Virus record (IMG/VR): IMGVR_UViG_3300034190_003093
Coordinates: 62,001 to 126,000 of that record
DNA length: 64,000 bases
Origin: an uncultured virus (IMG/VR IMGVR_UViG_3300034190_003093)
Taxonomy: Duplodnaviria > Heunggongvirae > Uroviricota > Caudoviricetes
Reading direction: 5' to 3' (one strand)
Below the pieces are notes generated by a model. That model searched no databases and was not told where the DNA came from. It saw only the letters and a list, made by a program, of their open reading frames with translations. A program made the translations under genes and the position numbers. This document shows, in pieces, positions 2 through 63,083 of the stretch (positions within the stretch are counted from its first letter, which is position 1; every line of letters starts with the position of its first letter).

Positions 2-1999
2 TTGAATGCCAAAGAGCATGGAGATCAAGTTTTAAGCATTGCTGTTAAAATGAAAGCAAACATGTGGAACGGTGATCCTATTGTTGTAACCCGTACCACT
101 GATGGTTATATGATTCTTGACGGTCACCACAGATTTGCCGCTGCAAAAAAAGCTGGGCTTGAAAGTTTGCCAGCAATTGTAGTAGATGCTAGCGAACTTG
201 AACATCGCAACGATATTCCCAAAGCTAAAGTTGAAGAAGCAAGTGGCTACATTCCAACTAAAGCACAAGCAAAAGATCCTCGATTTAGTAGTGCACTCAC
301 TGTTGACGTTAAGCCAGGTGAAACACAGCGCCAGGCTGCTAAACTAGGTATGAAGATTGACAAAAAGGGCAGTCCTCCACTACTGCATGCAACAGCAGCT
401 AAAAACACCAGTGCTAACAAGGCGTATAATCTAGGGTTAGTAGAAAGTTTACAAGCAAAGTATGATGCAATTAGATCTAGCAACGTAAACGAAGAAAGCA
501 TTAATGAAAGTGTCAACGAAGTATCTAAAGAAGAATTTGACGCTATCCGAAATGGATACGTAGATATCGAATTTGATAAGAAATGGTGGCCATTAAATAA
601 TGATTACCCATTAATCAAACATATCGGTAAAGCTATTGGTGCAACTAGTTGGACTAGTTGGGGTAAAGTTGGGGTCCCATGGTCAACAACAGAAATGATC
701 GGTGGTGGTGGCACGTATATGCTTAAAGGGGACTTTGGACATATACTATTAGATGCAGCAAAGAGTTATCGCCCAGAAAAAATCTTAATGTCACAAATCT
801 CAACGTCAGAACGAGGTGCGGGCATAGGCGGTAAAGTTATGAATGCAATAAAATCATATGCAGATCAAAACAAATTACCGTTGACAGTATATAAAGTAAC
901 TAACCGGAAGTTTTTCGACAAGTTTGAATGGTTAGAAAAAACAGGCACTGATACATACGAATACAAACTTAATGAAAGTGTTAACGAAGGTTACAAGCTA
1001 CAACTAGAACGTGATGCTGATATGATGGTGTTAAACATTACTGATACCGCAACTGGCAAGCGTACAGAAGTTCGTGGTAAGAGTGGCTATGAAAGTGGTA
1101 ACTACGATGCGAATGACAAACTACATCAGCTATTAGATAGAATTAGCAAAGCATCAAACATCTCAGACTTAATCAATGGCGAAGTTGTAGGTATCAATCC
1201 TAAGCATCCTGACGGTAAGAGTGCAAAGACTGCAACAGATACAGCATTTAACGAAGATGTAAATATAGACAACAAAGAAGGTTGGGGTGCTGTTCCTAAC
1301 AACCAAGAAGTTGACTATTTTGGCATGCGTGTTAAGATGAAACCAAGTGTGTTTTTGAAATTAGCAGAAAGCAGACGTGGTGTTCCGGCAGTTGATAAAG
1401 TAGTTGATCATATCAAAAATGGTGGTGCAATTGGAGCACCTTTTCTTATTATTAGTTACACAGAAGGCAGTACAGCAGAAATCATTGGGCATGAAGGTCG
1501 CAGCAGAATGATTGCCATACAACAAGTATTTGGCGACATTCCTGTTGAAGTACATTTATTTTTTAACAGTAACACTGTTAACCGTGCAAGACATTTAACT
1601 CCAGACATTATTGCTGATATTAACAAAGCAATGTTAAGCCAGGATGACCAAGAACTTAGTGGCCCATTTTTCACAGAAAGCATTAATGAGAAGATTACAA
1701 AGCGTACCCCAATGGGTGATGTTATTGATGATTTCTACCAAAGTGATGCTCCGCAATTCAAAGGTAAAAGTAAAGCAAAGCGTAGACAAATGGCTATTGC
1801 TGCAAAATTAGCCAAAATGGATGAAAACTTTGCAGACGGTAAAGTAAAAGGCAAAAGCAAACCGGGTCGTGTAAAAGCAGCAGGTGCAAGTTGCAACGGT
1901 AGTGTAACTGATTTACGTGCTCGTGCAAAGAAATATTCAGGCGAGCGAGCTAAGATGTATCACTGGTGTGCCAATATGAAGAGTGGAAAAAAGAAATAA
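2..1999 (+). CDS. Modular probable internal head polyprotein (5'-partial): ParB/Srx-like domain, GNAT-like domain, second ParB-like domain, basic tail
   Basis: ILDGHHRFAAA (ParB/Srx), ERGAGIGGKVM (GNAT acetyl-CoA motif), GHEGRSR; modules separated by NESVNE/ESINE linkers. Confidence 0.6.
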   Translation: MNAKEHGDQVLSIAVKMKANMWNGDPIVVTRTTDGYMILDGHHRFAAAKKAGLESLPAIVVDASELEHRNDIPKAKVEEASGYIPTKAQAKDPRFSSALTVDVKPGETQRQAAKLGMKIDKKGSPPLLHATAAKNTSANKAYNLGLVESLQAKYDAIRSSNVNEESINESVNEVSKEEFDAIRNGYVDIEFDKKWWPLNNDYPLIKHIGKAIGATSWTSWGKVGVPWSTTEMIGGGGTYMLKGDFGHILLDAAKSYRPEKILMSQISTSERGAGIGGKVMNAIKSYADQNKLPLTVYKVTNRKFFDKFEWLEKTGTDTYEYKLNESVNEGYKLQLERDADMMVLNITDTATGKRTEVRGKSGYESGNYDANDKLHQLLDRISKASNISDLINGEVVGINPKHPDGKSAKTATDTAFNEDVNIDNKEGWGAVPNNQEVDYFGMRVKMKPSVFLKLAESRRGVPAVDKVVDHIKNGGAIGAPFLIISYTEGSTAEIIGHEGRSRMIAIQQVFGDIPVEVHLFFNSNTVNRARHLTPDIIADINKAMLSQDDQELSGPFFTESINEKITKRTPMGDVIDDFYQSDAPQFKGKSKAKRRQMAIAAKLAKMDENFADGKVKGKSKPGRVKAAGASCNGSVTDLRARAKKYSGERAKMYHWCANMKSGKKK

Positions 2000-4363: not shown

Positions 4364-4527
4364 AGATTCGAGAGTTACTAGAAGATGTAAGTACAGGCGG
4401 AACAGCAAGTGGTAGTATTGCCACAGTTTCGGCACCATTAGGTTCAGTTATTTCTCGCAGCAAGCCCACTGTGAAAAAGATTAAACGAAAATATGCCAAC
4501 ACAGTACGGGCTGTTAAGTATGATTGA
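4360..4527 (+). CDS. 55-aa probable head protein with MKIRELLE leader (not in ORF track)
   Basis: Hand translation MKIRELLEDVSTGGTASGSIATV...KYD*; ATGA overlap with upstream stop. Confidence 0.6.
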   Translation: MKIRELLEDVSTGGTASGSIATVSAPLGSVISRSKPTVKKIKRKYANTVRAVKYD

Positions 4528-5554
4528 AATGTTTCCGGCTAAACAGTACCAAGGGAAGTACTGTTTGTCACCATTTGTTATGATCGAGGTTACCCTAGAG
4601 GGCGATGTTCGAATGTGTGGATGTAACCGATGGATGCCAACTACCATTGGAAATTTAAAAGAAAACACACTAAAGGAATTGTTGTCGTCTGAACTGGCAC
4701 AAAAAATTAGACAAAGTATCATTGATGGATCTTATGTTTATTGTGATGCAGATTGGTGTGCTGTAATTGCTAACAACGGGCTAAACAAGATCAAGTCAGT
4801 GCCGCCGAACATAAGAGAACTATTCGACGATCCATCAAAATTTGAAATGCCTCATCATATTAGTTTCAATGGGGACCAAACTTGTAATCTAAGTTGTCCT
4901 AGCTGCCGACGTCATATTATAAAAACTCCATTATCAAAACAAGAAGAACAGCGCAAGCTAGGCGAAACTCTTTCTAACAACTTGTTTGCTGACGCAACAG
5001 ATAAAAAAATAAAAATAGAACTTGGCGGGGCAGGTGAAGTGTTTGCTAGTCCTATGTTAATGGATTTTGTAAACTCAATTGATATTGATAAATTTCCCAA
5101 TGTAGAATTTGACTTTGGTACAAATGGGTTGCTGTGCGAACAAAACTGGCATCGATTCGGAAACAAAGTTAATAACATTAACAAAATAACTGTAAGTATT
5201 GATGCATCACAAGCCGACACATACGAAAAAATACGCCGCGGTGGGAAATGGCCAAAGTTACTACAAGCAATGCATTTTTTACAAAACAAGAAACATGAAT
5301 TAGGTTTTAAATTACATACCAGGATGATTTTACAACAGCAAAATTATCAAGAAATAGAACCATTTTACTATTTTTGCAAGGAATTTGATGTAGACATAGT
5401 GGAATATTCTAAATTGCAAATGTGGGGCTCTTGGTCGCTTGAGGAATACAACTTCCATCATGTGTTTAGTCCTGTGCACCCTGAATACGAACCAGCACAA
5501 ATCGAACTTGCTAAAGTTAGAGACTTTTCTGATACATGGTTTGCCGGATTATAA
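4520..5554 (+). CDS. Radical SAM protein with N-terminal SPASM/twitch-like domain
   Basis: CNLSCPSC motif; N-terminal C..PF...CGC...C..C. Confidence 0.85.
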   Translation: MIEMFPAKQYQGKYCLSPFVMIEVTLEGDVRMCGCNRWMPTTIGNLKENTLKELLSSELAQKIRQSIIDGSYVYCDADWCAVIANNGLNKIKSVPPNIRELFDDPSKFEMPHHISFNGDQTCNLSCPSCRRHIIKTPLSKQEEQRKLGETLSNNLFADATDKKIKIELGGAGEVFASPMLMDFVNSIDIDKFPNVEFDFGTNGLLCEQNWHRFGNKVNNINKITVSIDASQADTYEKIRRGGKWPKLLQAMHFLQNKKHELGFKLHTRMILQQQNYQEIEPFYYFCKEFDVDIVEYSKLQMWGSWSLEEYNFHHVFSPVHPEYEPAQIELAKVRDFSDTWFAGL

Positions 5555-5792: not shown

Positions 5793-6236
5793 ATGTTAGC
5801 AGATGATCTAAAAACGCTATTGGCAACAGAATACGCATTTGTAATTAAAGCACAGAACTTTCACTGGAATGTTGAAGGTCCAGACTTTGCACAGTACCAT
5901 CAGTTCTTTGGAGACTTGTACAGCGAAGTGTACGAAAACACAATTGATCAGACAGCTGAATATATTAGAACCCTCGACGTATACACTCCGGGATCATTTG
6001 AAAGATTTGGAGAGCTTAGTGTTATCAGTGGCCAGACAAAAATTCCACGGGCTATGCTAATGATACAAGAATTAGCCGACGACAACAATGCAATGTTGCA
6101 AATACTAACACAAACTTTCAAATCAGCCGTGGATGAAAACAACGAAGGCATTGCTAACTTTATTGCTGAAAGGCTAGATGCACATAACAAACACGGATGG
6201 ATGTTACGCAGTTTTCTCAAAGGAAGTAGAGCATAA
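5793..6236 (+). CDS. dps: Dps/ferritin-like DNA protection protein
   Basis: FHWNVEG.DF..YH, D..AE, H.K..WML ferroxidase motifs. Confidence 0.92.
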   Translation: MLADDLKTLLATEYAFVIKAQNFHWNVEGPDFAQYHQFFGDLYSEVYENTIDQTAEYIRTLDVYTPGSFERFGELSVISGQTKIPRAMLMIQELADDNNAMLQILTQTFKSAVDENNEGIANFIAERLDAHNKHGWMLRSFLKGSRA

Positions 6237-7336
6237 TGAGTAATGTAGACCCAAAAGAAGTTTCAAGTTTTGCAGACCTAGTCGCCAAGATGAATCAGCT
6301 AGAAAGCGGAGAAAGTGTTTCTTCGTCTAAGCCACATCATCTTGAAGAAGGTTTGGCAGCAAACGACATGAGTGCAATCCTTGAGAATATGTATCGTGAG
6401 ACACCTTTTGAAAGTGCCAAAGCTCTACCAGCAGAGTACGACATGCCAAATCAAAGTCCAGTACTGGGCAGCGACGAAGAAAAGAATGTTTATGGCGATT
6501 ACTTTGTTGGCGAAAATATCAATCCTGAAGATGTAGGTGAATACGATCAAGAAGGCGATATGGCCAAAGGCGATCTTAATAGAGCTGCGGATGCTGCACT
6601 AGAGCTCGAAAGTATCTTGTCCGATGGTGACAACTTGCCTGAATGGGTACAAGCAAAGATTACCAAAGCACTCGACTATCTTGACACAGCTCGTGATTAC
6701 ATGAAAAACGAATTGGACGAAGGCTATAAAGTTATGCCTCCAATGGATGACAAGTATCAAGCACGTAAAGGACTTGAAGGTCCATTCACTACACTGAGTG
6801 GCAAAGTTGTTTATTACGATCCAAAAGAAGGCATGTACTACGATCCGGACACTGATATGTACATTAGCTATGATGATTTTCAAGCATTGGATAACGATTA
6901 CAGTGATATGAAAGAAGGTTCCAACCCAGGCGACGAAGAGTCATGGGACGGTGTAAGCCCGGGTACTAGCCAAGTTGCCGGGGGAGGCAACAGTGGATAT
7001 AAAGGCCCAGTTGCCCCTGAGGGGTCAGTTGATCCTACACAATTATCAAAAATGACCAAAGAAGATCAAGTTAGCAAAAAGCGTAGTATTATGGACTACC
7101 TTAGAGATGTTGACACAAGTGCAGTACAAGAAGTAATCAAAGAACCAGTTAAGAGCTATAAAGCTGCTAACGGTAAATCACTCAAAATCTTCGGCAACGA
7201 AGATGACGGATATAGAGTAAAGATTAACGGAAAAGAATCTAAAAGTTCATTCGGTAAACTTGCGGATGCCGTACAAGCATGCGAGTCCTTTATACAAAAG
7301 ACTACGCCACACAATTTAGATTATATGGATGAATAA
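6236..7336 (+). CDS. Acidic modular probable internal head protein
   Basis: LPEWVQAKITKA and YYDPKEG.YYD modules; xxE linkers (LEEG, LDEG, MKEG). Confidence 0.5.
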   Translation: MSNVDPKEVSSFADLVAKMNQLESGESVSSSKPHHLEEGLAANDMSAILENMYRETPFESAKALPAEYDMPNQSPVLGSDEEKNVYGDYFVGENINPEDVGEYDQEGDMAKGDLNRAADAALELESILSDGDNLPEWVQAKITKALDYLDTARDYMKNELDEGYKVMPPMDDKYQARKGLEGPFTTLSGKVVYYDPKEGMYYDPDTDMYISYDDFQALDNDYSDMKEGSNPGDEESWDGVSPGTSQVAGGGNSGYKGPVAPEGSVDPTQLSKMTKEDQVSKKRSIMDYLRDVDTSAVQEVIKEPVKSYKAANGKSLKIFGNEDDGYRVKINGKESKSSFGKLADAVQACESFIQKTTPHNLDYMDE

Positions 7337-33597: not shown

Positions 33598-34191
33598 ATG
33601 GAAATAAAGATTAAGCTCCGTGGCAACTGTGCCAATGGAAAATCACCTAAGGTGAGACTATCTGTCAACGATACAGTATATGTTGATACTGAAATTTCTG
33701 AGATTAATGAACACACGTTAAACATTCAACCATTGTTGCAAAATGTATTGTCCATTGAACACTATAACAAAACCAACGACGATACCATTGTTGACGATAG
33801 TAATAATATTGTAGCTGATTTAAGTGTCGAACTACTAGATATAACAATAGATAATAATTCAATACTGCACACAGTGCTGCACACAATGCCGTTTTATGTT
33901 AACTGGCCTGAGAATATTGTTAGTGACTACCACGAAAAAAATGAAACCCCGCCTGAGTTCATTATTAACAACCTTTATTTTGGATTCAATGGTATATACA
34001 AGTTTAATTTTACAGACAACAGCGATATTGATTATTTTACCACGTTTTGGTTAGATGAAGCTCAGGCACATGTTAATCAAACAGAGACCGCAGATGGCGA
34101 AGAAGTGTTTGAACGAATGGGCGAAATAGTGACTATCGCCAAAGATAGTGATTTTACTATTCACGATTTAAAAAGAATGGTTGACGTATAG
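33598..34191 (+). CDS. Beta-rich hypothetical protein (paralogue family)
   Basis: PKVRLSVND...LYFGFNGIYKF. Confidence 0.6.
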   Translation: MEIKIKLRGNCANGKSPKVRLSVNDTVYVDTEISEINEHTLNIQPLLQNVLSIEHYNKTNDDTIVDDSNNIVADLSVELLDITIDNNSILHTVLHTMPFYVNWPENIVSDYHEKNETPPEFIINNLYFGFNGIYKFNFTDNSDIDYFTTFWLDEAQAHVNQTETADGEEVFERMGEIVTIAKDSDFTIHDLKRMVDV

Positions 34192-34234
34192 CAACTATCA
34201 GTGTTATTATATGTTTAACAAAACAGAGAGTCTG

Positions 34235-35761
34235 ATGAAAATATTTTCTATAGCAGTAAATCACCACGATCACAATACATACAACGGTCTGGTTCATAAC
34301 CAAATAGAACGGCACACCAGAGTAAAGCATAATCTTAATCCGGATTTCTTGCGTGACCCTGTGCCCTGTAGGGATTTTTTCGACGACCATTTCTTGCCTA
34401 ACTATAATAAAGAGCAAGTATTTGCATTTACTATTTCTAATTTAGGACATGAATATGTTGAAGACTTAGTAGAAGAGACCTTACCGGACACAGATTTTTT
34501 AAAGTTTAAGCCAAACAATCTATGGGATAGATTACACACAGATAGTTATTACTATATCGACCATCACCAAAGTCATGCTGCTTATGCATTTCTAAATTCA
34601 GGCTTTAAAGAAAGTGATGTACTAGCGATTGACGACAAGGGTTATAATTTTAATTGTATCTTTATTAATAAACACGGTACAATCACCGACTTGACCAAGG
34701 AACTGTCAATTGGCGGGTGTTGGAACACATTAGCACAGAATCTTGGATTTGAATTCCTCCAAGCCGGCAAGGTTATGGGCTTGGTAGGATTTGGAAAATA
34801 TAACGATGAAGTTTACACAATGATTCATCGTTATTTAGAAAATCCCAATCAACGACTCCCTGACGGTGCACATGATATTATACAGCGTGTTGCTAAAGAG
34901 GATGTAGCATTTACGCTACAACAAGTTACATTTGAACTTGTTACAAAACACGTATATCCTCTTAAAACATCAGACAATTTATGCATTGCAGGCGGAGTTG
35001 CATACAACGGTTATATGAATGAAGAGTTTACAAAGCATTACACAAATGTACATGTGCCGCCGGCTCCTGGTGACGAAGGCCAGGCATTAGGCGTTTACAT
35101 GCATGCTGATTACATTTTAAATGGTAACACACATATTCCTACAGTGTATGCAGGAGAAGACTACATTGTAGATACTGCTATATTCAACGGATTGTACTAT
35201 CAACAAAAATCAATGGAAGAAGTATACACTGAAGTTGCCGCTGCTATTGCCGATGGTGCAATAGTTGGATGGTATCAGGGTGCTAGCGAAAGCGGGCACA
35301 GAGCGTTAGGCAATCGGAGTATACTTGCAGATCCACGCAAGCCAGATATTAAAGATATTATCAACAGTAAAATTAAACTGCGTGAAGACTTCAGACCATT
35401 TGCGCCAAGTGTATTGTATGAACATTATCAAGATTATTTTGATACCAACCAGCCTAGTCCGTACATGAGCCGTATCATGCCAGTTACAAGTAATACTATT
35501 CCTGGTGTAACACATGTAGACGGCACAGCACGTATACAGACTGTACAGCGCGAGTTTAATTCTTGCTACTACGACTTAATAAATGCATTCTATACCCTAA
35601 CGGGAGTTCCTATGTTGCTCAACACCAGCTTCAACTGCCAGGAGCCTATTGTAGAAACACCCGAGGATGCAGTTGCCACATTTAAGAAATGCGGTCTTGA
35701 TGTATTAATAATTAACAATTATGTAATCAGGAAAGAAGATGGCAAAAAAGTACATATTTGA
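34235..35761 (+). CDS. NodU/CmcH-family carbamoyltransferase
   Basis: HHQSHA, GKVMGL, GGVAYN, PGDEG, RALGNRS, RPFAP, HVDGTAR, NTSFN. Confidence 0.92.
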   Translation: MKIFSIAVNHHDHNTYNGLVHNQIERHTRVKHNLNPDFLRDPVPCRDFFDDHFLPNYNKEQVFAFTISNLGHEYVEDLVEETLPDTDFLKFKPNNLWDRLHTDSYYYIDHHQSHAAYAFLNSGFKESDVLAIDDKGYNFNCIFINKHGTITDLTKELSIGGCWNTLAQNLGFEFLQAGKVMGLVGFGKYNDEVYTMIHRYLENPNQRLPDGAHDIIQRVAKEDVAFTLQQVTFELVTKHVYPLKTSDNLCIAGGVAYNGYMNEEFTKHYTNVHVPPAPGDEGQALGVYMHADYILNGNTHIPTVYAGEDYIVDTAIFNGLYYQQKSMEEVYTEVAAAIADGAIVGWYQGASESGHRALGNRSILADPRKPDIKDIINSKIKLREDFRPFAPSVLYEHYQDYFDTNQPSPYMSRIMPVTSNTIPGVTHVDGTARIQTVQREFNSCYYDLINAFYTLTGVPMLLNTSFNCQEPIVETPEDAVATFKKCGLDVLIINNYVIRKEDGKKVHI

Positions 35762-38807: not shown

Positions 38808-39230
38808 ATGAAGGTTGAATTAGAATTTATAGGATCAGTTGCTGGCGGCGATCCTAAAATCAGCGTTTCTAATAGACACAACAACACTACAGAATATGAT
38901 TCAGTACAAGACGGAAAGTTTACAGTAACAACTGAGATTGATTTTTCGCCAATTGATCAATTGAGAATACAATTTTTTGACAAAGTACACATACCCGATT
39001 CTGAAAAAGACACATTTGTGGAACTTGTAAAAGTAGTAATAGACGACATAAATCTACAACATCATTTTTACAAAGGAAAGTACTTTCCTTGCTATGATGA
39101 AAATTTTTATAGAGAATTTTTGCCACCTGATTACTATCAGCCTTGCAGCGTGTTTTATCACAATGGTACATTTGAATTAGATATCAAAACACCAATTTGG
39201 AAGTTTTTAATGGACGGTTACGATGCATAA
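38808..39230 (+). CDS. Beta-rich hypothetical protein (paralogue family)
   Basis: GGGAG RBS; DPKISVSN...FYHNGTFEL. Confidence 0.55.
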   Translation: MKVELEFIGSVAGGDPKISVSNRHNNTTEYDSVQDGKFTVTTEIDFSPIDQLRIQFFDKVHIPDSEKDTFVELVKVVIDDINLQHHFYKGKYFPCYDENFYREFLPPDYYQPCSVFYHNGTFELDIKTPIWKFLMDGYDA

Positions 39231-39945
39231 ATTCCCTAAACTAATCGAAGAACTAAGCAATAATAACCAGTTTGATCTTGACCATTATCTAGACAGCGGA
39301 GTACCTTGGACCAAGTTAAACATTGATGTCCCGGAGTTTGATCAAAATGTATTTGACCAAGCAGTAGAACAAAGCACCAACTGGAGACAGCAATGGCTGT
39401 TTACCAATGACAACGAACACATTGAGGTTGACTATCAAATCAAAGAATGGAACGGTCAAGTTTTGTTTGGCCCGGCAGACTGGGATGCATGGGTAAAATT
39501 TGCAGCAGACAAACAGAAAGCAAATGACGAAGACCGGCTGTGTATGTTACACCGCAATGACTTTAAATTTGAATGGCGACTAAATGTTGATCACCCTATT
39601 AGACAGTTTGTTGAGAAGCTTTTTCCAAACCCCCAGGATATCAACATTGTTAACTTTTATGTGTTGCCGCCAGGCGGATATCTTTTCCCTCACGTTGATC
39701 CTACCCAGGGTGCCCGTGCATTAAATAAAATTTACATTCCTCTAAAATGGAGTGAAGGCAATGAATTTGGTTTTTATAAATGGGGAAATCTTCCAATTGT
39801 TGAACGCAATGCATACTTGATTAATAACTATAGATATGCCCATTGGGTATTAAACAGAAGCAACGAGCCTAGAGTGGTATTAGATATTGGTGCTAACTTG
39901 CACACTATTAAAGATCTAATCGAGGACAGTTTTAAACAGGCATAA
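39223..39945 (+). CDS. Asp/Asn beta-hydroxylase-like 2OG-Fe(II) oxygenase
   Basis: LPPGG.L.PHVD, H.V.N.S..PR. Confidence 0.75.
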   Translation: MHKFPKLIEELSNNNQFDLDHYLDSGVPWTKLNIDVPEFDQNVFDQAVEQSTNWRQQWLFTNDNEHIEVDYQIKEWNGQVLFGPADWDAWVKFAADKQKANDEDRLCMLHRNDFKFEWRLNVDHPIRQFVEKLFPNPQDINIVNFYVLPPGGYLFPHVDPTQGARALNKIYIPLKWSEGNEFGFYKWGNLPIVERNAYLINNYRYAHWVLNRSNEPRVVLDIGANLHTIKDLIEDSFKQA

Positions 39946-40384: not shown

Positions 40385-40550
40385 AACTTTACAAGACGGT
40401 ACAGAAGTACCCGCTATTGATGTAGCTGTTGAACTTAACGTAATTACCAAGTGCCCAAGTAAGTGGCGACTAATTGACGACGAAACGGGTGTAGAATACA
40501 GAGGGCGTTTACCGTTGGATGGCGAATTACATTGGAAAAGAATAAAATAA
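40371..40550 (+). CDS. 59-aa hypothetical protein (not in ORF track)
   Basis: GGAGG RBS; MSLTRTLQDG...TKCPSKW...KRIK*. Confidence 0.55.
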   Translation: MSLTRTLQDGTEVPAIDVAVELNVITKCPSKWRLIDDETGVEYRGRLPLDGELHWKRIK

Positions 40551-40637
40551 GTCAGTGCAGGTTTGCTAGCAGCATAGACACGACTAGGCGTCACGAGTCG
40601 CCGCTGTGGCAGGGTTCGATTCCCTGGCTTGACTCCA
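40551..40637 (+). ncRNA. Aberrant tRNA-like RNA
   Basis: T-arm CAGGG-TTCGATT-CCCTG, acceptor-like stem and CCA; non-canonical D and anticodon arms. Confidence 0.6.
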
Positions 40638-40641
40638 AAAT

Positions 40642-41136
40642 TTATAAATTAGGATTATCACCCATACCCCAAACAGTTACCGCCCAGCGTGTGCCACTGG
40701 TTGGCGGTAGCGCCCTGTGTTCGGCAGTTGACGGAATAATAACTGCTTCGCCTTGCTGTAGATCGAATGTATGATCTCTTGTTTCAAAATGTGCGCCTGG
40801 CGCTGTTTGAAGTGTGCATGTTAGTGTAAGTATTCGAGAGCTAGTTCTTTTATCCACTGATTGGTCTGTGTGCCAGTGATAGTACTGCTCTTTTTCATAT
40901 TTAGAAATTTGGATAGGTTCTTGTATCCAGGATATATTGTAATCCTCGATATCCATCATAAGATTGCGTAACTTTTCAATATCTTTATAATCTATCCAAA
41001 ATATTTTATTATTTCTTATACTAGTATTATATTTCCCCCCGGCAATACCATCACTTTCAGCAAGTTCTTTTGTATCTTTAATAATTTGCTCACATTCTTC
41101 GGGTGTAAACAGTTGGAATGGGGTGTATAGTTTCAC
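40642..41136 (-). CDS. Prolyl-4-hydroxylase-like 2OG-Fe(II) oxygenase
   Basis: WHTD, H..LP..SG.R.A.T.W; ATAAATAC late promoter on the minus strand near 41160. Confidence 0.85.
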   Translation of the reverse strand: MKLYTPFQLFTPEECEQIIKDTKELAESDGIAGGKYNTSIRNNKIFWIDYKDIEKLRNLMMDIEDYNISWIQEPIQISKYEKEQYYHWHTDQSVDKRTSSRILTLTCTLQTAPGAHFETRDHTFDLQQGEAVIIPSTAEHRALPPTSGTRWAVTVWGMGDNPNL

Positions 41137-42979: not shown

Positions 42980-43122
42980 ACAATTGGATTGATATAGATA
43001 ACTTCTTGCGTGGACTTATTGTTGCATCCAAGGACAACGAACAACTATATGCTGATGCTATGAAGAAGTTTAATTGGAATCGCAGTCAAGCAACGGCAGC
43101 AATTGAACCTTTAAAAAATAGG

Positions 43123-43153
43123 TTGACAAACAACTAATACTAGTGTATAAATA
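43123..43153 (+). promoter_or_regulatory. Dual early/late promoter of tmRNA
   Basis: TTGACA-17nt-TATAAA, extending to TATAAATA. Confidence 0.7.
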
Positions 43154-43159
43154 GATTGT

Positions 43160-43438
43160 AACGTTGAAGTGATGTGAATACGGACAGGACCGCGGGGCAG
43201 TACCGCGCTGCTCCACCATAATTACTTTGTAGCGTAAAAACTACAAATTTACGGCGTAGAGTAATTATGATGGGGCAGAACTAGGATCGACTGACGAGAT
43301 AGCAGAGTGGAGTTACCGGGATGTAAGCGCCGTTACCGCGAACAAACTTTCTAAATGCAAACGCAAATAGAGCGCCAGAAATGGCAATGGCAGCCTAGTT
43401 AGGCTCCCGGGGTGGATCACCTAGCAACAGAACGATCA
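43160..43438 (+). ncRNA. ssrA: Circularly permuted (two-piece) tmRNA; outer ends approximate
   Basis: T-arm and CTGCTCCACCA end at 43218; GGGGCAG 5' strand at 43272 with G3.U70; tag ANANRAPEMAMAA* at 43357-43398. Confidence 0.92.
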
Positions 43439-43439
43439 A

Positions 43440-43472
43440 GAGAGTGTTGCAGCAATGTGACATTCTCATTTT
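43440..43472 (+). terminator. Hairpin terminator after tmRNA
   Basis: GAGAGTGTTGCA-GCAA-TGTGACATTCTC followed by ATTTT. Confidence 0.6.
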
Positions 43473-46474: not shown

Positions 46475-46562
46475 GGACAGTTGGCCGAGTGGTCGAAGGC
46501 AGCGGATTACTAATCCGCCGAACCGAAAGGTTCCGTGGGTTCGAATCCCACACTGTCTGCCA
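46475..46562 (+). tRNA. tRNA-Ser with unusual ACT anticodon
   Basis: Type II, long variable arm, G73, GCGGA-TTACTAA-TCCGC, CCA. Confidence 0.9.
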
Positions 46563-46741: not shown

Positions 46742-46816
46742 GTCCCGTTCGTCTATCGGTTAGGACTACGGCTTTTCAAGCCGTCAAGAGGGGTTCGATT
46801 CCCCTACGGGATGCCA
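46742..46816 (+). tRNA. tRNA-Glu(TTC)
   Basis: ACGGC-TTTTCAA-GCCGT, CCA. Confidence 0.95.
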
Positions 46817-46834
46817 AAATACAAGGTTGATATA

Positions 46835-48028
46835 ATGAAAAAGTTGACGGAGAATTTTTGTGTAGCCCCGTTTATACAATGCACTACACATCCGTCAACT
46901 AGCTTTTCCCCTTGCCCGTATCTTGGTGGCACAACATGGAAAGCATCAGGCAACAGCATACTAGAGCAATGGCGTAGCAGCGAAATTGAACAACTGCGCC
47001 AGGACTTTATTAACAATAAAAAAAGCCCTGTGTGCAACCGCTGCTGGCACGAAGAAGAAAACAATAAAAAAAGCTTGCGGCAGCGATTGTTTGATCCAGT
47101 TAATTCAACAAGTGAATACTCTTTTATTGATTCCGAGACATATGCTGACGAATTAATTAACCGAGTTAACAGCGGTGACTATCTCAGTGGCCCAGAGGTG
47201 TTGACTATCAAGAATGGAAACATATGCAATGCTAAATGTAGAGTGTGTCATCCAGGTGATAGCAATCGCTGGATAGCCGATAGCGTAAAACTAAAAAAAC
47301 TTACCGGGAAAGAATACTATGTAACCAATCAGGCTGCAACAAATTGGTCAGATGATCAACTCGAAGAAATACTCAACATGGCTCCTGGGTTAAAGCGTCT
47401 TGAATTATTCGGCGGCGAGCCTATGTATAATAAAAAAGTAATCAAACTTCTTGAACAATTAGTAAAGACTGGACACTCATCTCATATTGTATTATACATC
47501 AATACCAATGGCAGTGTTAACATTGTGCACAAAATACCAAATATTAAACATTTCCAAGAAGTTGAAATTGGTGTAAGCATCGACGGTATTGCTGATCATT
47601 TTGAATACATACGTCATGGGTTAAAATACGAAGTTGTTAAGAACAATATCGCAGATTGGAAAAAATATTTTGAAGAGCATAATGTAAAATACTACATTGA
47701 TTGTATCTGCACTGTAGGTGTATTAAACATTTTCTATCTACCCGAAATTAAAGCAGCTATCATGAATATTCTGCCATTGCCACCGTACTGGAATTTGCTG
47801 GTCGAGCCGGCATACTTGTTTATTAAAAACATGCCTGAATCGGTAAAGACAGCCGTGATAGAAAAACTCAGTCAAGACGAAGAATTCCAAGACTTGACTA
47901 ATGTTATCCAACAACCTAGGGATCCTGCCGAATGGGACAAATTTCTAGAAGTAAACGGGGCGTTGGATCAAATTCGCAAAGAAAACTTTCAAAAAACTTT
48001 TCCTGAATTTGCAAAATTAATTTTCTAA
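46835..48028 (+). CDS. Radical SAM protein with N-terminal twitch-like domain
   Basis: CVAPF..PC..C.RCW; CNAKCRVC; GGEP; TNG; SIDG. Confidence 0.88.
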   Translation: MKKLTENFCVAPFIQCTTHPSTSFSPCPYLGGTTWKASGNSILEQWRSSEIEQLRQDFINNKKSPVCNRCWHEEENNKKSLRQRLFDPVNSTSEYSFIDSETYADELINRVNSGDYLSGPEVLTIKNGNICNAKCRVCHPGDSNRWIADSVKLKKLTGKEYYVTNQAATNWSDDQLEEILNMAPGLKRLELFGGEPMYNKKVIKLLEQLVKTGHSSHIVLYINTNGSVNIVHKIPNIKHFQEVEIGVSIDGIADHFEYIRHGLKYEVVKNNIADWKKYFEEHNVKYYIDCICTVGVLNIFYLPEIKAAIMNILPLPPYWNLLVEPAYLFIKNMPESVKTAVIEKLSQDEEFQDLTNVIQQPRDPAEWDKFLEVNGALDQIRKENFQKTFPEFAKLIF

Positions 48029-56250: not shown

Positions 56251-57300
56251 ATGGCTAAAAAGAAGCACCCAAATCAAAAGAAAAAACAAACAGAAAAAGT
56301 AGCAACCGAAGCTACATTACCTGTAGGAAGTAAAGTACTAGTAACAGGCGGCTTGGGGCTTATTGGTCACAATGTTGTCGCAAAGCTGCAATCAGTAGGA
56401 CATGAAGTACAAATCATCGATGTACTCACAACCTACAACAGCATCAACAAAGAAGAACTAGAGTACCTATACAACGAACGTATTAAAAAGATTTCTCCAG
56501 ACACCCACATTTATAAATTAGATATTTGTGATGGCAAAGTTGATGAAGTCTTTGCAAGCTTTAATCCAGATTATGTTATTCACTTGGCTAGCTTTCCAAG
56601 AGAAAAAGCAGTAAAGCACAACCCAATTGATGCAGCACACACAATGGGCGAGGGCTTGATTAACATCATGGAATGTTGTGCACGACATGGTGTTAAAAAA
56701 GTATTGTATGCTAGTTCTAGCATGGTGTATGGCGACTTCGAAGATGATGTAAACGAAGATGCAGTACTAAATCCTCAAGGTGCATATGCAATTTGGAAAG
56801 CAGCTGGCGAGCAAATCATGCGTCAGTACAAACGTGCACACAACTTAGATTATGTGATTGTTCGTCCTAGTGCAGTGTACGGTCCGTTAGATGTAGGTGA
56901 TAGAGTTATCAGCAAATTCCTTATTAGTGCAATGTCCGGTGGAACACTTCAAGTTAATGGTGCTACAGAGAAACTGGACTTTACATATGTTGATGATGCA
57001 GCTGATGGCATGATTGCTGCTACATTCAGCGAGCACGTTGGCACATACAATCTCACCAAGAGTCATAGCTGCACACTGGAAGAGGCTGCAAATCTTGCAG
57101 TTAAACTAGCTGGTAAAGGCTCAGTTAGCATGCATGCAAAAGACGACGACTTCCCAAGTCGTGGTGCACTAAACATTGATGCAGCAAGAAAAGACTTTGG
57201 ATTTGATCCAAAAGTTGATATTGATGAAGGCTTTCAAATCTATTATGATTGGCTTACAAACAGTAGTTATTGGGCCGTTAATAAAGCACAAGTTGCATGA
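56251..57300 (+). CDS. NAD-dependent epimerase/dehydratase
   Basis: TGGLGLIG, SSSMVYG, YAIWK, DFTYVDD. Confidence 0.9.
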   Translation: MAKKKHPNQKKKQTEKVATEATLPVGSKVLVTGGLGLIGHNVVAKLQSVGHEVQIIDVLTTYNSINKEELEYLYNERIKKISPDTHIYKLDICDGKVDEVFASFNPDYVIHLASFPREKAVKHNPIDAAHTMGEGLINIMECCARHGVKKVLYASSSMVYGDFEDDVNEDAVLNPQGAYAIWKAAGEQIMRQYKRAHNLDYVIVRPSAVYGPLDVGDRVISKFLISAMSGGTLQVNGATEKLDFTYVDDAADGMIAATFSEHVGTYNLTKSHSCTLEEAANLAVKLAGKGSVSMHAKDDDFPSRGALNIDAARKDFGFDPKVDIDEGFQIYYDWLTNSSYWAVNKAQVA

Positions 57301-58382
57301 AAATACCATTTACTAACTTACAAGCCCAATATCAGGATTGTAAACAAGATATCGATGCAGCAATACAACGTTGCCTCGATATCGACAGTTTTATTACAGG
57401 ACCTGATGTTACAGAATTTGAACTAAAGTTTGCAGAATACCTTGGTGCCGATGATGTAGCAAGTTGCGGTAGCGGCACTACAGGACTTTATTGTGCAATG
57501 CGGGCATTGAACATCGGACCAGGTGATGAAGTAATCACAGTGAGCCATACGTTTGTTGCTACGCCCGAAAGTATTGTTATATGTGGAGCTACTCCGGTGT
57601 TCTGCGACATTGATCCAGACACTTGGCTAGTTGATCTTGATCAGTTGGAAACACTGATTAATAAAAACACTCGTGCTGTACTATTTGTAGACATTTACGG
57701 ACAATGCCCCGACATTGAGCGAGTGCGCAGCATATGCAATCATTACAATCTTGCAATGGTAGAGGATGCTGCACAAAGTGTGGGCAACCGGTGGAACGGT
57801 CGTCCGGTGGGAAGCCTCAGTGACATTACTTGTATGAGCTTTAATCCTGTGAAAAATTTGGGTGCAGTAGGTGATGCAGGCGCAGTAAGTGGCAGCAAGC
57901 ATTACATGAATGAAGTTCGCAAGTATAGAGATCATGGTAGAACTGGTCGTTACAACATTGTAGAAGTTGGATACAATGCTAGAATTGACAACATACAAAG
58001 CAATGTTGTTATGGCTAAATTGCCCAAGCTAGATGGCTGGCTTGAGCGCAAAAGAGAAATCTGTAACTATTACACCGAACAGTTATCAAGTGTGATTAAA
58101 ACGCCTGTTACTGTAGAAGGTAACAGTCATAGCTGGTATGTGTATGTAATACAAACTGCCAATAGGGAAAGTTTAAAAGCACATCTCAATGACGCTGGCA
58201 TTGGAACAAACATTCATTATATGAGAGCTGCTCACCAACAACCAGCATTTGCACAGTGGAGCCGTAGTTTGCCAGTCACTGAGCGCACTGTAGACGAAAT
58301 ACTCAGCATACCGTGTTGGTATAGCATGACTGACAGCGAAGTTGATTATGTAGTAGACAATGTTAAAGGTTGGAAATCATGA
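57297..58382 (+). CDS. DegT/DnrJ/EryC1/StrS sugar aminotransferase
   Basis: SGT.GL, EDAAQ, SFNPVKNLGA.GDAG, GYNAR. Confidence 0.92.
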   Translation: MKIPFTNLQAQYQDCKQDIDAAIQRCLDIDSFITGPDVTEFELKFAEYLGADDVASCGSGTTGLYCAMRALNIGPGDEVITVSHTFVATPESIVICGATPVFCDIDPDTWLVDLDQLETLINKNTRAVLFVDIYGQCPDIERVRSICNHYNLAMVEDAAQSVGNRWNGRPVGSLSDITCMSFNPVKNLGAVGDAGAVSGSKHYMNEVRKYRDHGRTGRYNIVEVGYNARIDNIQSNVVMAKLPKLDGWLERKREICNYYTEQLSSVIKTPVTVEGNSHSWYVYVIQTANRESLKAHLNDAGIGTNIHYMRAAHQQPAFAQWSRSLPVTERTVDEILSIPCWYSMTDSEVDYVVDNVKGWKS

Positions 58383-61914: not shown

Positions 61915-63083
61915 CATTTTGTGCAGATCAATTTAAAGGCGATGTGCCTTTTCCTAACTGTGCTACTTGGGATGCAGCTCCGTACACACCAGAATGGCGC
62001 AAATTTAGTTTGAACAGCCCGTTTAGCGAACCAGTGCATTTTTACGAATATCTAAAACAAGAAGGCATTGACTACACTGTGGTCAAAACTGATGATGCAC
62101 CCAATGGCAGCATATATCCAATTAGTCTTAGCTTTTTTGATTTCACTGTGGAATGGTTTGATATTATCCCAAAAAACGTTGTAAAACGTCTCGTAGACAA
62201 CCAACTAAAAATTTGGTTTTTCTACAGCGAAGGAGATAACCCTTTTCGCATAAAAAAACATATTAAAAAACAAATGGTTACAGCAGGCATTTCGCCAGAA
62301 AACCTGCATTTTACCACCGCAAACACTAAAAGCCATGATCTTGCACAATTCAGCTACTTATGTGACGACGAGCTGTTATACCGGCTCCGTAATGAAGGTT
62401 TAGCAACTGAATTCCATGACCGTCCACGCAGTAAAAATTTTACTGCACTTGTGCGCACACACAAATGGTGGCGGGCTAATACAATGACCAGACTGTGGAT
62501 GAAAGGGTTGCACGAAAAAGGATTCTTTAGTTACAATGCTGATATTAGTGTGGGTGATTTACCAGAAGATAATCCAGTCGAAGTTGATAGCTTTGGTAGC
62601 CTTAGACATCACACCGAATTCTTTTTAAAGCTATGCCCGTTCCATGCTGACCTGTTGAGCAGCAACGAACATAATTTGTACCATCACACTGTGGCAGCAC
62701 ATCACGACGATGCATACTTTAATTTTGTAATTGAAACACATTTAGATGTAGATCAAAGCAATGGTGTGTTCTTAACAGAAAAAACATTTAAACCTATTAA
62801 GCATGCACAGCCATTTGTAATTGTTGGTGCCGCTGGTAGTATACAACAGTTACGTGACATGGGATACAAGACATTCGATCATGTGGTTGATCACAGCTAT
62901 GACAACATCTCTAACAACACCGAGCGCTGGAATGCAGTGTGCAACGAAATGGAACGAATTGCAAAATCTAAAAAAATACATCAAATGTATATAGATTGTA
63001 AAGAAGATTTGCTGCACAATCAACAGTTATTCTTGGCTAGCAAAGCCAATAGATTAGAAACAATATTAGGAAAATTAAAATGA
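61908..63083 (+). CDS. GT-B-like protein of the TEK(T/S) paralogue family
   Basis: VIET, LTEKTFKP, GYKTF...DHSYD. Confidence 0.6.
   Translation: MVTFCADQFKGDVPFPNCATWDAAPYTPEWRKFSLNSPFSEPVHFYEYLKQEGIDYTVVKTDDAPNGSIYPISLSFFDFTVEWFDIIPKNVVKRLVDNQLKIWFFYSEGDNPFRIKKHIKKQMVTAGISPENLHFTTANTKSHDLAQFSYLCDDELLYRLRNEGLATEFHDRPRSKNFTALVRTHKWWRANTMTRLWMKGLHEKGFFSYNADISVGDLPEDNPVEVDSFGSLRHHTEFFLKLCPFHADLLSSNEHNLYHHTVAAHHDDAYFNFVIETHLDVDQSNGVFLTEKTFKPIKHAQPFVIVGAAGSIQQLRDMGYKTFDHVVDHSYDNISNNTERWNAVCNEMERIAKSKKIHQMYIDCKEDLLHNQQLFLASKANRLETILGKLK

Follow-up and report, generated by a model that had tools for sequence, protein, structure and literature searches.

A widespread, uncatalogued family of tRNA-shaped RNAs encoded in the tRNA arrays of uncultured phages

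Phages T4 and T5 encode tRNA-like stable RNAs, RNA C and RNA D in the former and RNA1 and RNA2 in the latter, whose roles, decades after the RNAs became known, are still unknown according to two published accounts (PMC3014915, PMC9697503), and the T5 genome record itself annotates RNA1 and RNA2 as “tRNA-like stable RNA with unknown functions”. A further point of comparison is the transfer-messenger RNA (tmRNA) of mycobacteriophage DS6A, which consists of the tRNA-like domain (TLD) only and for which PMC4131195 proposes a titrating or inhibitory role. Here, we describe an 87-nt tRNA-shaped element at positions 40551-40637 of a 64,000-nt stretch of DNA (the window; positions 62,001 to 126,000 of IMG/VR record IMGVR_UViG_3300034190_003093), which forms part of a 137.5-kb virus record of a marine jumbo phage. 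A first-pass annotation, made from the letters of the window alone, had proposed a tRNA-like RNA at this site with an intact T-arm and CCA end but remodelled D and anticodon arms; the sequence reads as quoted there, with a canonical T-arm and a terminal TCCA. It adds a new and widespread family to a kind of phage RNA that is known but still unexplained.

Like the members of this family, the T4 and T5 RNAs are encoded within or next to phage tRNA clusters, in the orientation of the tRNAs, and T4 RNA C shares with the element a T-arm and an acceptor-like 3' end. They differ in length (106-172 nt) and have neither the loop sequence AGGCGTCA nor the D-region GCAGGTTTGC of the family. A covariance model of the family scores T4 rnaC at 17.3 bits, T5 RNA1 at 12.4 bits and T5 RNA2 at 14.5 bits, and as ordinary tRNAs of the same loci score higher (up to 25.6 bits), the family is not homologous to these RNAs. 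The same design is now seen in many uncultured marine and other environmental phages. Canonical tRNA (RF00005) has in common with the element its acceptor stem, a TTCRAWT loop in the T-arm, an encoded CCA, the GG of the D-region, and the position and spacing within arrays. The element departs from it in several ways: the window's lineage has no D-stem, the 5-bp anticodon stem gives way to an arm of about 10 bp interrupted by an internal loop, the loop has 9-13 nt where a tRNA has 7 nt, the connector is 3 nt long, and both ARAGORN and Rfam score the element below threshold.

With default settings, ARAGORN reports seven tRNAs in the window and none at the element, and its sole call there with lowered thresholds or with introns allowed, a tRNA-Pro(agg), was rejected for its broken or mismatched stems. 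Rfam 15 gives nine matches in the window at the gathering score, none of them at the element. At E<=10, only mascRNA-menRNA touches the element, in its T-arm half and at 17.5 bits (E 0.58) against a gathering score of 42.5 bits, and the tmRNA families of Rfam have no match between 40400 and 40800. Neither program therefore calls the element as a tRNA, a check that the first-pass annotation had suggested, and the Rfam tRNA gathering score was reached by none of five further family members checked. The family is absent from Rfam 15, and no description of it was found in the literature either, most subscription journals lying outside the coverage of that search. As tRNA finders and Rfam miss the family, a covariance model would improve phage annotation.

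Relatives of the element were sought with exact and degenerate pattern scans of viral contigs and metagenome contigs. Family members make up 16 of the 22 viral-contig loci and 28 of the 40 metagenome loci retrieved, and comprise 17 distinct sequences in four or five lineages: the window's own, with seven variants; L107; the L085 group; and the L031/L035/L084 and L099/L119 groups, of about 109 nt. A second, independent pattern, in which only the D-region (GCAGGTTYG) and the T-loop were fixed and the arm and loop were left free, matched at least 118 loci; among the matches listed, 63 carry AGGCGTCA in the apical loop, and these 63 loci represent 27 distinct sequences when two flanking bases are counted. 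Members occur in marine and other metagenomes, almost always inside the tRNA arrays of uncultured phage contigs, 2-9 nt from a tRNA on the same strand and often right after tRNA-Arg(TCT). Each of the three records searched contains a single copy of the element. A bacterial origin was considered and rejected: a 16-mer of the central loop region, searched against one genome per prokaryote species, gave 25 matches, and as all of these lie in unrelated sequence without tRNA-like context, no cellular copy is known.

Two kinds of incomplete resemblance were seen alongside the family. In contigs L002 and L008 (about 1497-1521, minus strand), only the last 26 nt of the element are present (T-loop, 3' acceptor strand and TCCA), located behind a tRNA-Arg(TCT) and 35 nt of unrelated AT-rich sequence. 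Other tRNA-shaped sequences in viral contigs carry the D-region GCAGGTTTGC and the T-arm together with different arms and without AGGCGTCA (L152/L212/L234/L245/L253, L161, L202, L210, L255 and L260), scoring 22-36 bits with the family model. These sequences may constitute a wider scaffold superfamily, and the occurrence of the same D-region with different arms suggests a modular scaffold with exchangeable heads.

Four helices are supported by comparison of the family sequences, namely the acceptor stem, an outer stem, an inner stem and the T-stem, with compensatory changes in all four across lineages. In the main alignment, a covariance model was used to align 52 matches, yielding 33 distinct rows. 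Over the 22 pairs of this alignment, 91.6% of cells are paired, compared with 67.4% in shuffles, and 20 of the 22 pairs change on both sides; none of 500 shuffles reached any of these measures, and slid controls gave 37-45%. The outer stem is paired in 94.4% of cells with all four pairs changing on both sides, the inner stem in 92.1% with all six doing so, and the T-stem in 99.4% with three such pairs; the T-stem of variant C reads TGAGG/CCTCA, which amounts to three compensatory pairs. Within the acceptor, pairs 1-6 covary in the family, with pair 5, for example, appearing as GC in 12 rows, AU in 10 and GU in 9. Hand segmentation of the 17 sequences found paired cells in 103/119 cases for the acceptor, 70/70 for the outer stem, 98/106 for the inner stem and 82/85 for the T-stem, with several pair types per position in each helix. 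In addition, 11 distinct sequences aligned without gaps over the loop and 13 nt to either side of it, an alignment not fitted to any model, show the inner stem GACACG/CGAGTC paired in 90.9% of cells, with five of six pairs changing on both sides, no shuffle out of 500 doing as well, and slid controls at 17-52%.

Within the window's lineage, every substitution either falls outside the supported pairs or is compensated (T6/C6, T12C, G19A, T25C or T25AA, A46C at an A-A mismatch, G50A, C52A, G68A and the three T-stem pairs). Whole-element alignments made with MAFFT misaligned the 5' halves, and RNAalifold recovered the T-stem only from them. Two other ways of folding the window sequence, a GGCG/CGCC pairing and the minimum free energy (MFE) fold, were discarded, variants D and E breaking both.

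The resulting anatomy keeps the top half of a tRNA, with acceptor stem, NCCA, canonical T-arm and GG in the D-region, and replaces the anticodon arm with a two-part helix of about 10 bp (4 + 6 in the window) under an enlarged loop (Table 1). The inner parts drawn in the first-pass annotation were different. Its D hairpin is paired in 70.6% of cells with one double change and competes with the far better paired outer stem, and its description of a D-region with no GG loop was mistaken, as the two bases are there and do not vary. The anticodon stem CGACT/AGTCG with a 10-nt loop, which can be drawn in the window's lineage only, is paired in 45.5% of cells (11 distinct sequences) with no two-sided change, and it is disrupted by uncompensated substitutions in variants D (A46C) and E (G50A). 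The proposed variable hairpin reaches 59.1% with little covariation, and this inner anatomy as a whole reaches 67.2% compared with 64.7% in shuffles. A bulged-T acceptor is drawable in the window's lineage, where the stem has five pairs and mismatches at positions 6 and 7, but the family norm is six covarying pairs followed by an unpaired G7; outside this lineage G7 is conserved and unpaired, and pair 7 is non-standard in 21 of the 25 lettered cells of the 33-row alignment. The broader statement that pairing has been kept was correct in general, but the D, anticodon and variable-arm pairs named for it are not the conserved ones.

An invariant segment of the element is found at the tip of the long arm. 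The apical loop of the family ranges from 9 to 13 nt, its 5' part varying in length and sequence and its closing pair varying as well, and on its 3' side AGGCGTCA is an invariant 8-mer (as RNA, AGGCGUCA) in 29 of 29 distinct rows, of which about half came from a pattern requiring AGGCGTCA and the other half from one that did not. The CCA end is encoded in 25 of these 29 rows, the discriminator in those 25 being A in 19, T in 5 and G in 1. The element is under stronger constraint than the true tRNAs of the same contigs. Between the window and L003, identity is 99% over the element, 73% over tRNA-Ser and 79% over tRNA-Thr; the corresponding values are 99% for the element and 88% for tRNA-Arg in the comparison with L004, and 94% and 87% in the comparison with L013.

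We consider the element to be, with fair probability, the gene for a stable, non-decoding, tRNA-shaped RNA of an uncatalogued family residing in the tRNA arrays of large uncultured phages, a mimic that acts through its loop. Ordinary decoding is very unlikely given tRNA geometry, with an arm roughly double the usual length and a loop of 9-13 nt. The RNA would be transcribed together with tRNAs and, in the window, with the upstream protein genes, and RNase P and the 3'-end tRNA-processing enzymes would then excise it, so that an L-shaped RNA ending in CCA could accumulate. Codon reading would be precluded by the overlong arm, the oversized loop and the lack of a U33-type context. The tRNA-like body would supply processing, stability and entry to tRNA-binding factors, leaving the invariant loop as the probable working surface for capturing a partner. 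A protein partner, and with it a decoy or titration role, is favoured because no nucleic-acid target and no recurrent neighbouring protein gene were found; our best guess is a host protein that recognises the anticodon loops or the ends of tRNAs, for which the RNA would serve as a decoy or titrating agent, in parallel to the TLD-only tmRNA that is thought to titrate SmpB. If the loop does capture a tRNA-directed host factor, the family would represent an RNA-based counter-defence or translation-control device, and some of the stretches of phage tRNA arrays that now lack annotation would be accounted for. The short invariant loop provides a direct experimental handle.

A more specific and tentative version, which we regard as possible but unlikely, is a widespread, undescribed class of phage “display” RNA in which a tRNA-shaped scaffold with the invariant D-region GCAGGUUUGC, matured and stabilised in the manner of a tRNA, presents the invariant 8-nt loop AGGCGUCA and traps a host tRNA-directed factor, such as an anticodon nuclease or another tRNA-targeting defence protein, making the RNA a counter-defence decoy.

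Several observations weigh against a mimic that acts through its loop, or against the fold on which it depends. No member comes from a cultured phage: two family members used as BLAST queries found no relative among 50,697 GenBank phage records, a 601-nt query gave none either, and the family model gives only tRNA-level scores, of 30.4 bits at most, in Sinorhizobium phage Phosso, Agrobacterium phage Atu_ph07, Vibrio phage 2.275.O and T4. No protein gene recurs beside the element in five further contexts. Neither the phage tmRNAs nor the GOLLD RNAs contain the complement of AGGCGTCA, and its genomic count, 0 on one strand and 3 on the other with about two expected per strand, is at chance level; a 10-mer loop-target search in the window also stayed at chance level. 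Two RNA sequencing runs yield contigs (not reads) of a relative with 90-95% identity over the neighbouring genes, and none of these contigs spans the element. As for the fold, the 33-row alignment was fitted to the covariance model, which favours that model, though the hand and gap-free alignments point the same way, and the search patterns themselves fixed parts of the conserved motifs. Folding of the single sequence is uninformative, with an MFE of -26.9 kcal/mol, a z of 0.36, 126 of 200 shuffles folding as well and a T-arm that is broken in the MFE fold; thermodynamics alone do not prefer the family fold, which has -18.3 kcal/mol. Finally, an alternative small hairpin, ACGN-CUAG-NCGU, is paired in 79.5% of cells, one of its sides being invariant.

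Other explanations make different use of the same features. The intact and conserved acceptor stem, NCCA and T-arm, together with the CCA that most rows encode, would suit an aminoacylated tRNA-like RNA, in which the loop serves as an identity element for a synthetase or a dedicated enzyme and the amino acid is donated outside decoding, or, in a variant of this explanation, an odd tRNA-Asp. The first of these corresponds to the non-ribosomal amino-acid donor that the first-pass annotation had listed beside a nuclease decoy, and sequence alone does not separate these two roles. The apical loop holds GUC followed by A, and in L096 the 11-mer CTAGGCGTCAC makes up the 7-nt loop of a genuine tRNA-Asp(GTC) together with the stem strand on its 5' side. 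The phage of the window, also represented by a 300-kb record (G001; 99.96% identity over 129,678 aligned bases, estimated to be 86% complete), has nine tRNAs, none of them for Asp. However, ordinary tRNA-Asp(GTC) genes coexist with the element in the arrays of G003 (34 tRNAs for all 20 amino acids, two of them Asp), G004 (33 tRNAs, one Asp), L272 and L273; the base that follows GUCA, corresponding to position 38, may be C, G or T across the family; and the same 11-mer lies in the D-arms of a tRNA-Gly (L088), a tRNA-Val (L095) and a tRNA-Cys (L034). On these three grounds the element was rejected as the tRNA-Asp of its phage, and because the 11-mer also turns up by chance in other tRNAs and an ordinary tRNA-Asp coexists, the Asp link is at most a clue to origin and may be coincidence. 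A varying discriminator, a first pair that may be G:C, G:U or A:U, and an arm that places the loop and the CCA end off the spacing a synthetase would expect count against aminoacylation in general, and we judge it improbable. Conservation above that of the co-resident tRNAs and coexistence with tRNA-Asp together indicate that the element is neither a substitute tRNA nor a decaying pseudogene. The idea of a decaying tRNA pseudogene, or of a recently disrupted tRNA, might draw on the rejection by tRNA finders, the acceptor mismatches at positions 6 and 7 in the window's lineage and the truncated copy in L002 and L008, but that 26-nt remnant shows that genuine decay looks different, and the wide distribution in marine and other metagenomes and the loop core that never varies also speak against it. 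Homologues with compensatory changes, whose absence had been named beforehand as part of a refuting outcome, were found in several lineages and in all four helices, and with conservation above that of true tRNAs, they bear out the first-pass view that this is not simple decay; a pseudogene is very improbable.

The layout of the element is also that of the tmRNA TLD, which is likewise carried by phages and combines an acceptor with NCCA, a T-arm, a stemless D-region with GG and an extended helix substituting for the anticodon arm, so that a TLD-only mimic modulating trans-translation, for example through SmpB titration, has to be weighed against a mimic acting through its loop. The phage has its own permuted tmRNA 2.5 kb from the element, in L273 a member lies 2 kb from a permuted tmRNA, and the DS6A molecule offers a precedent, as such a molecule inhibits tmRNA whether charged or not, according to PMC4131195. 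Several features nevertheless fit poorly. In 33 rows, pair 3:70 is C:G in 26, U:A in 3, U:G in 3 and G:U in 1. The alanine identity of tmRNA is defined by G3:U70, and with C:G in most rows this identity pair is absent from the family. No Rfam tmRNA model matches the element even at the relaxed cutoff, an SmpB gene was found in none of four phage records, and the helix is capped by an invariant loop that has no counterpart in the TLD, rather than leading into a coding domain; a full two-piece tmRNA together with its inhibitor in one phage would also be odd. We give this explanation a small chance only. Much the same small likelihood attaches to the proposal that the element is a processing or stabilising module without any role in trans, providing RNase P and RNase Z punctuation and a structure that protects neighbouring transcripts at the 3' side. 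Organelles are an established case of tRNA-like punctuation, and the element begins at the base after the stop codon of a 59-aa open reading frame (ORF), between convergent genes and facing a 2OG-Fe(II) oxygenase gene, at a place where a promoter and terminator scan gave nothing above shuffles and predicted no intrinsic terminator. Such a module would need only the acceptor and the T-arm, which leaves the invariant 8-nt loop, the covarying long arm and the conservation above tRNA level unexplained, and in most genomes the adjoining tRNAs could already serve. The bacterial Y-RNA-like mimic that the first-pass annotation had listed, a YrlA-type RNA working with the Ro60 protein, is scarcely credible. 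YrlA and vertebrate mascRNA do resemble the element in putting a tRNA-like fold with a T-arm to a use other than decoding, and the tRNA-like module with T-arm of YrlA RNAs is described in PMC4201824. The termini of the element are of another kind, however, being an acceptor stem with NCCA and not a Ro-binding stem; there is no Rfam match to a Y RNA, the mascRNA match is far below its gathering score, and none of four phage records yielded a TROVE domain (Ro60) gene, which a control search detected in 2 of 14 known genomes.

Table 1. Parts of the element, nearby and other genes of the window, and GOLLD RNA loci of other contigs (window coordinates unless a contig is named)
Feature	Position	Strand	Basis or remark
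Whole tRNA-shaped RNA gene, 87 nt	40551-40637	+	Covariance-model match with exactly these ends, 108.2 bits
Acceptor 5' strand, nt 1-6	40551-40556	+	Nt 1-5 (GTCAG) pair; T6 faces C; C at nt 6 in other lineage members
D-region, mostly unpaired	40557-40569	+	Conserved; invariant GG
D-region motif GCAGGTTTGC	40557-40566	+	Common to all members from the D-region-pattern scans, where the motif was part of the pattern
GG (G10, G11)	40560-40561	+	Invariant in 17/17 sequences found without constraint on this region
Linker TAG	40567-40569	+	Varies among members; G19A in variant E
Outer stem	40570-40573 (CAGC) with 40603-40606 (GCTG)	+	Covariation
Internal loop, 5' side, ATA	40574-40576	+	T25C and T25AA polymorphism without change of partner
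Inner stem	40577-40582 (GACACG) with 40594-40599 (CGAGTC)	+	Covariation; A30 faces A46
Apical loop ACTAGGCGTCA, 11 nt	40583-40593	+	Core AGGCGTCA at 40586-40593
Internal loop, 3' side, GCC	40600-40602	+	G50A (variant E), C52A (variant D); 3x3 with ATA
Connector TGG, 3 nt, where the variable loop would be	40607-40609	+	Hand segmentation
T-arm, stem CAGGG/CCCTG, loop TTCGATT	40610-40626	+	Canonical 5-bp stem and 7-nt loop
Acceptor 3' strand GCTTGAC	40627-40633	+	40628-40633 paired; 40627 faces unpaired G7
Discriminator T and encoded CCA	40634-40637	+	Sequence
Asp/Asn-hydroxylase-like protein	39223-39945		
P-loop kinase, 142 aa	39956-40384		PHROG profile matched at positions 2-128 of 230, the first half only
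59-aa ORF after the P-loop kinase			Matches the C-terminus of a different, 559-position profile
2OG-Fe(II) oxygenase	40642-41136	-	
Radical SAM proteins	4493-5554 and 46811-48028		
Carbamoyltransferase	34181-35761		
Aminotransferase	57297-58382		
Circularly permuted (two-piece) tmRNA	43106-43441	+	Rfam tmRNA_permuted 104.6 bits, alpha_tmRNA 101.3 bits
tRNA-Ser with anticodon ACT	46475-46562	+	Called by both ARAGORN and Rfam
GOLLD RNA	L139 15295-15758		
GOLLD RNA	L273 8029-8494		
GOLLD RNA	L138 7549-8012		

The family-B DNA polymerase of the phage is nearest to those of alphaproteobacterial jumbo phages, with 51.7% for Phosso and 45.7% for Atu_ph07, and apart from one wastewater run, the sequencing runs containing the region come from marine or seawater metagenomes. 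In the DNA metagenome runs X1 and X4, the summed contig depth over window positions 40505-40638 rises to 76.7 and 72.8, compared with 4-13 in the adjoining bins. Contigs of these runs break at the edges of the element, and one loose end has the 3' end of another tRNA directly upstream. The rise in depth and the contig breaks indicate that several co-occurring phage genotypes carry the element in different contexts.

Modification-type enzymes are abundant around the element, between 39223 and 41136, and elsewhere in the window (Table 1). The permuted tmRNA of the window was overlooked by ARAGORN; that of L273, the second family-bearing contig with such a gene, lies at 6150-6556. The window also has a tRNA-Ser with the unusual anticodon ACT, which recurs in its relative L003 (1344-1434), the two copies having the anticodon in common at only 73% identity. 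GOLLD RNAs scoring 201-208 bits share tRNA arrays with family members in three of the seven loci scanned. Further unusual tRNAs were called by ARAGORN in other contigs: the family-bearing array of L272 includes a tRNA with anticodon CTA at 392-467 on the minus strand (“Pyl”, amber-suppressor type), and on the minus strand of L096 two neighbouring calls, at 390-462 and 654-724, are a tRNA-Asp whose anticodon is preceded by C in place of T and a “SeC(tca)”.

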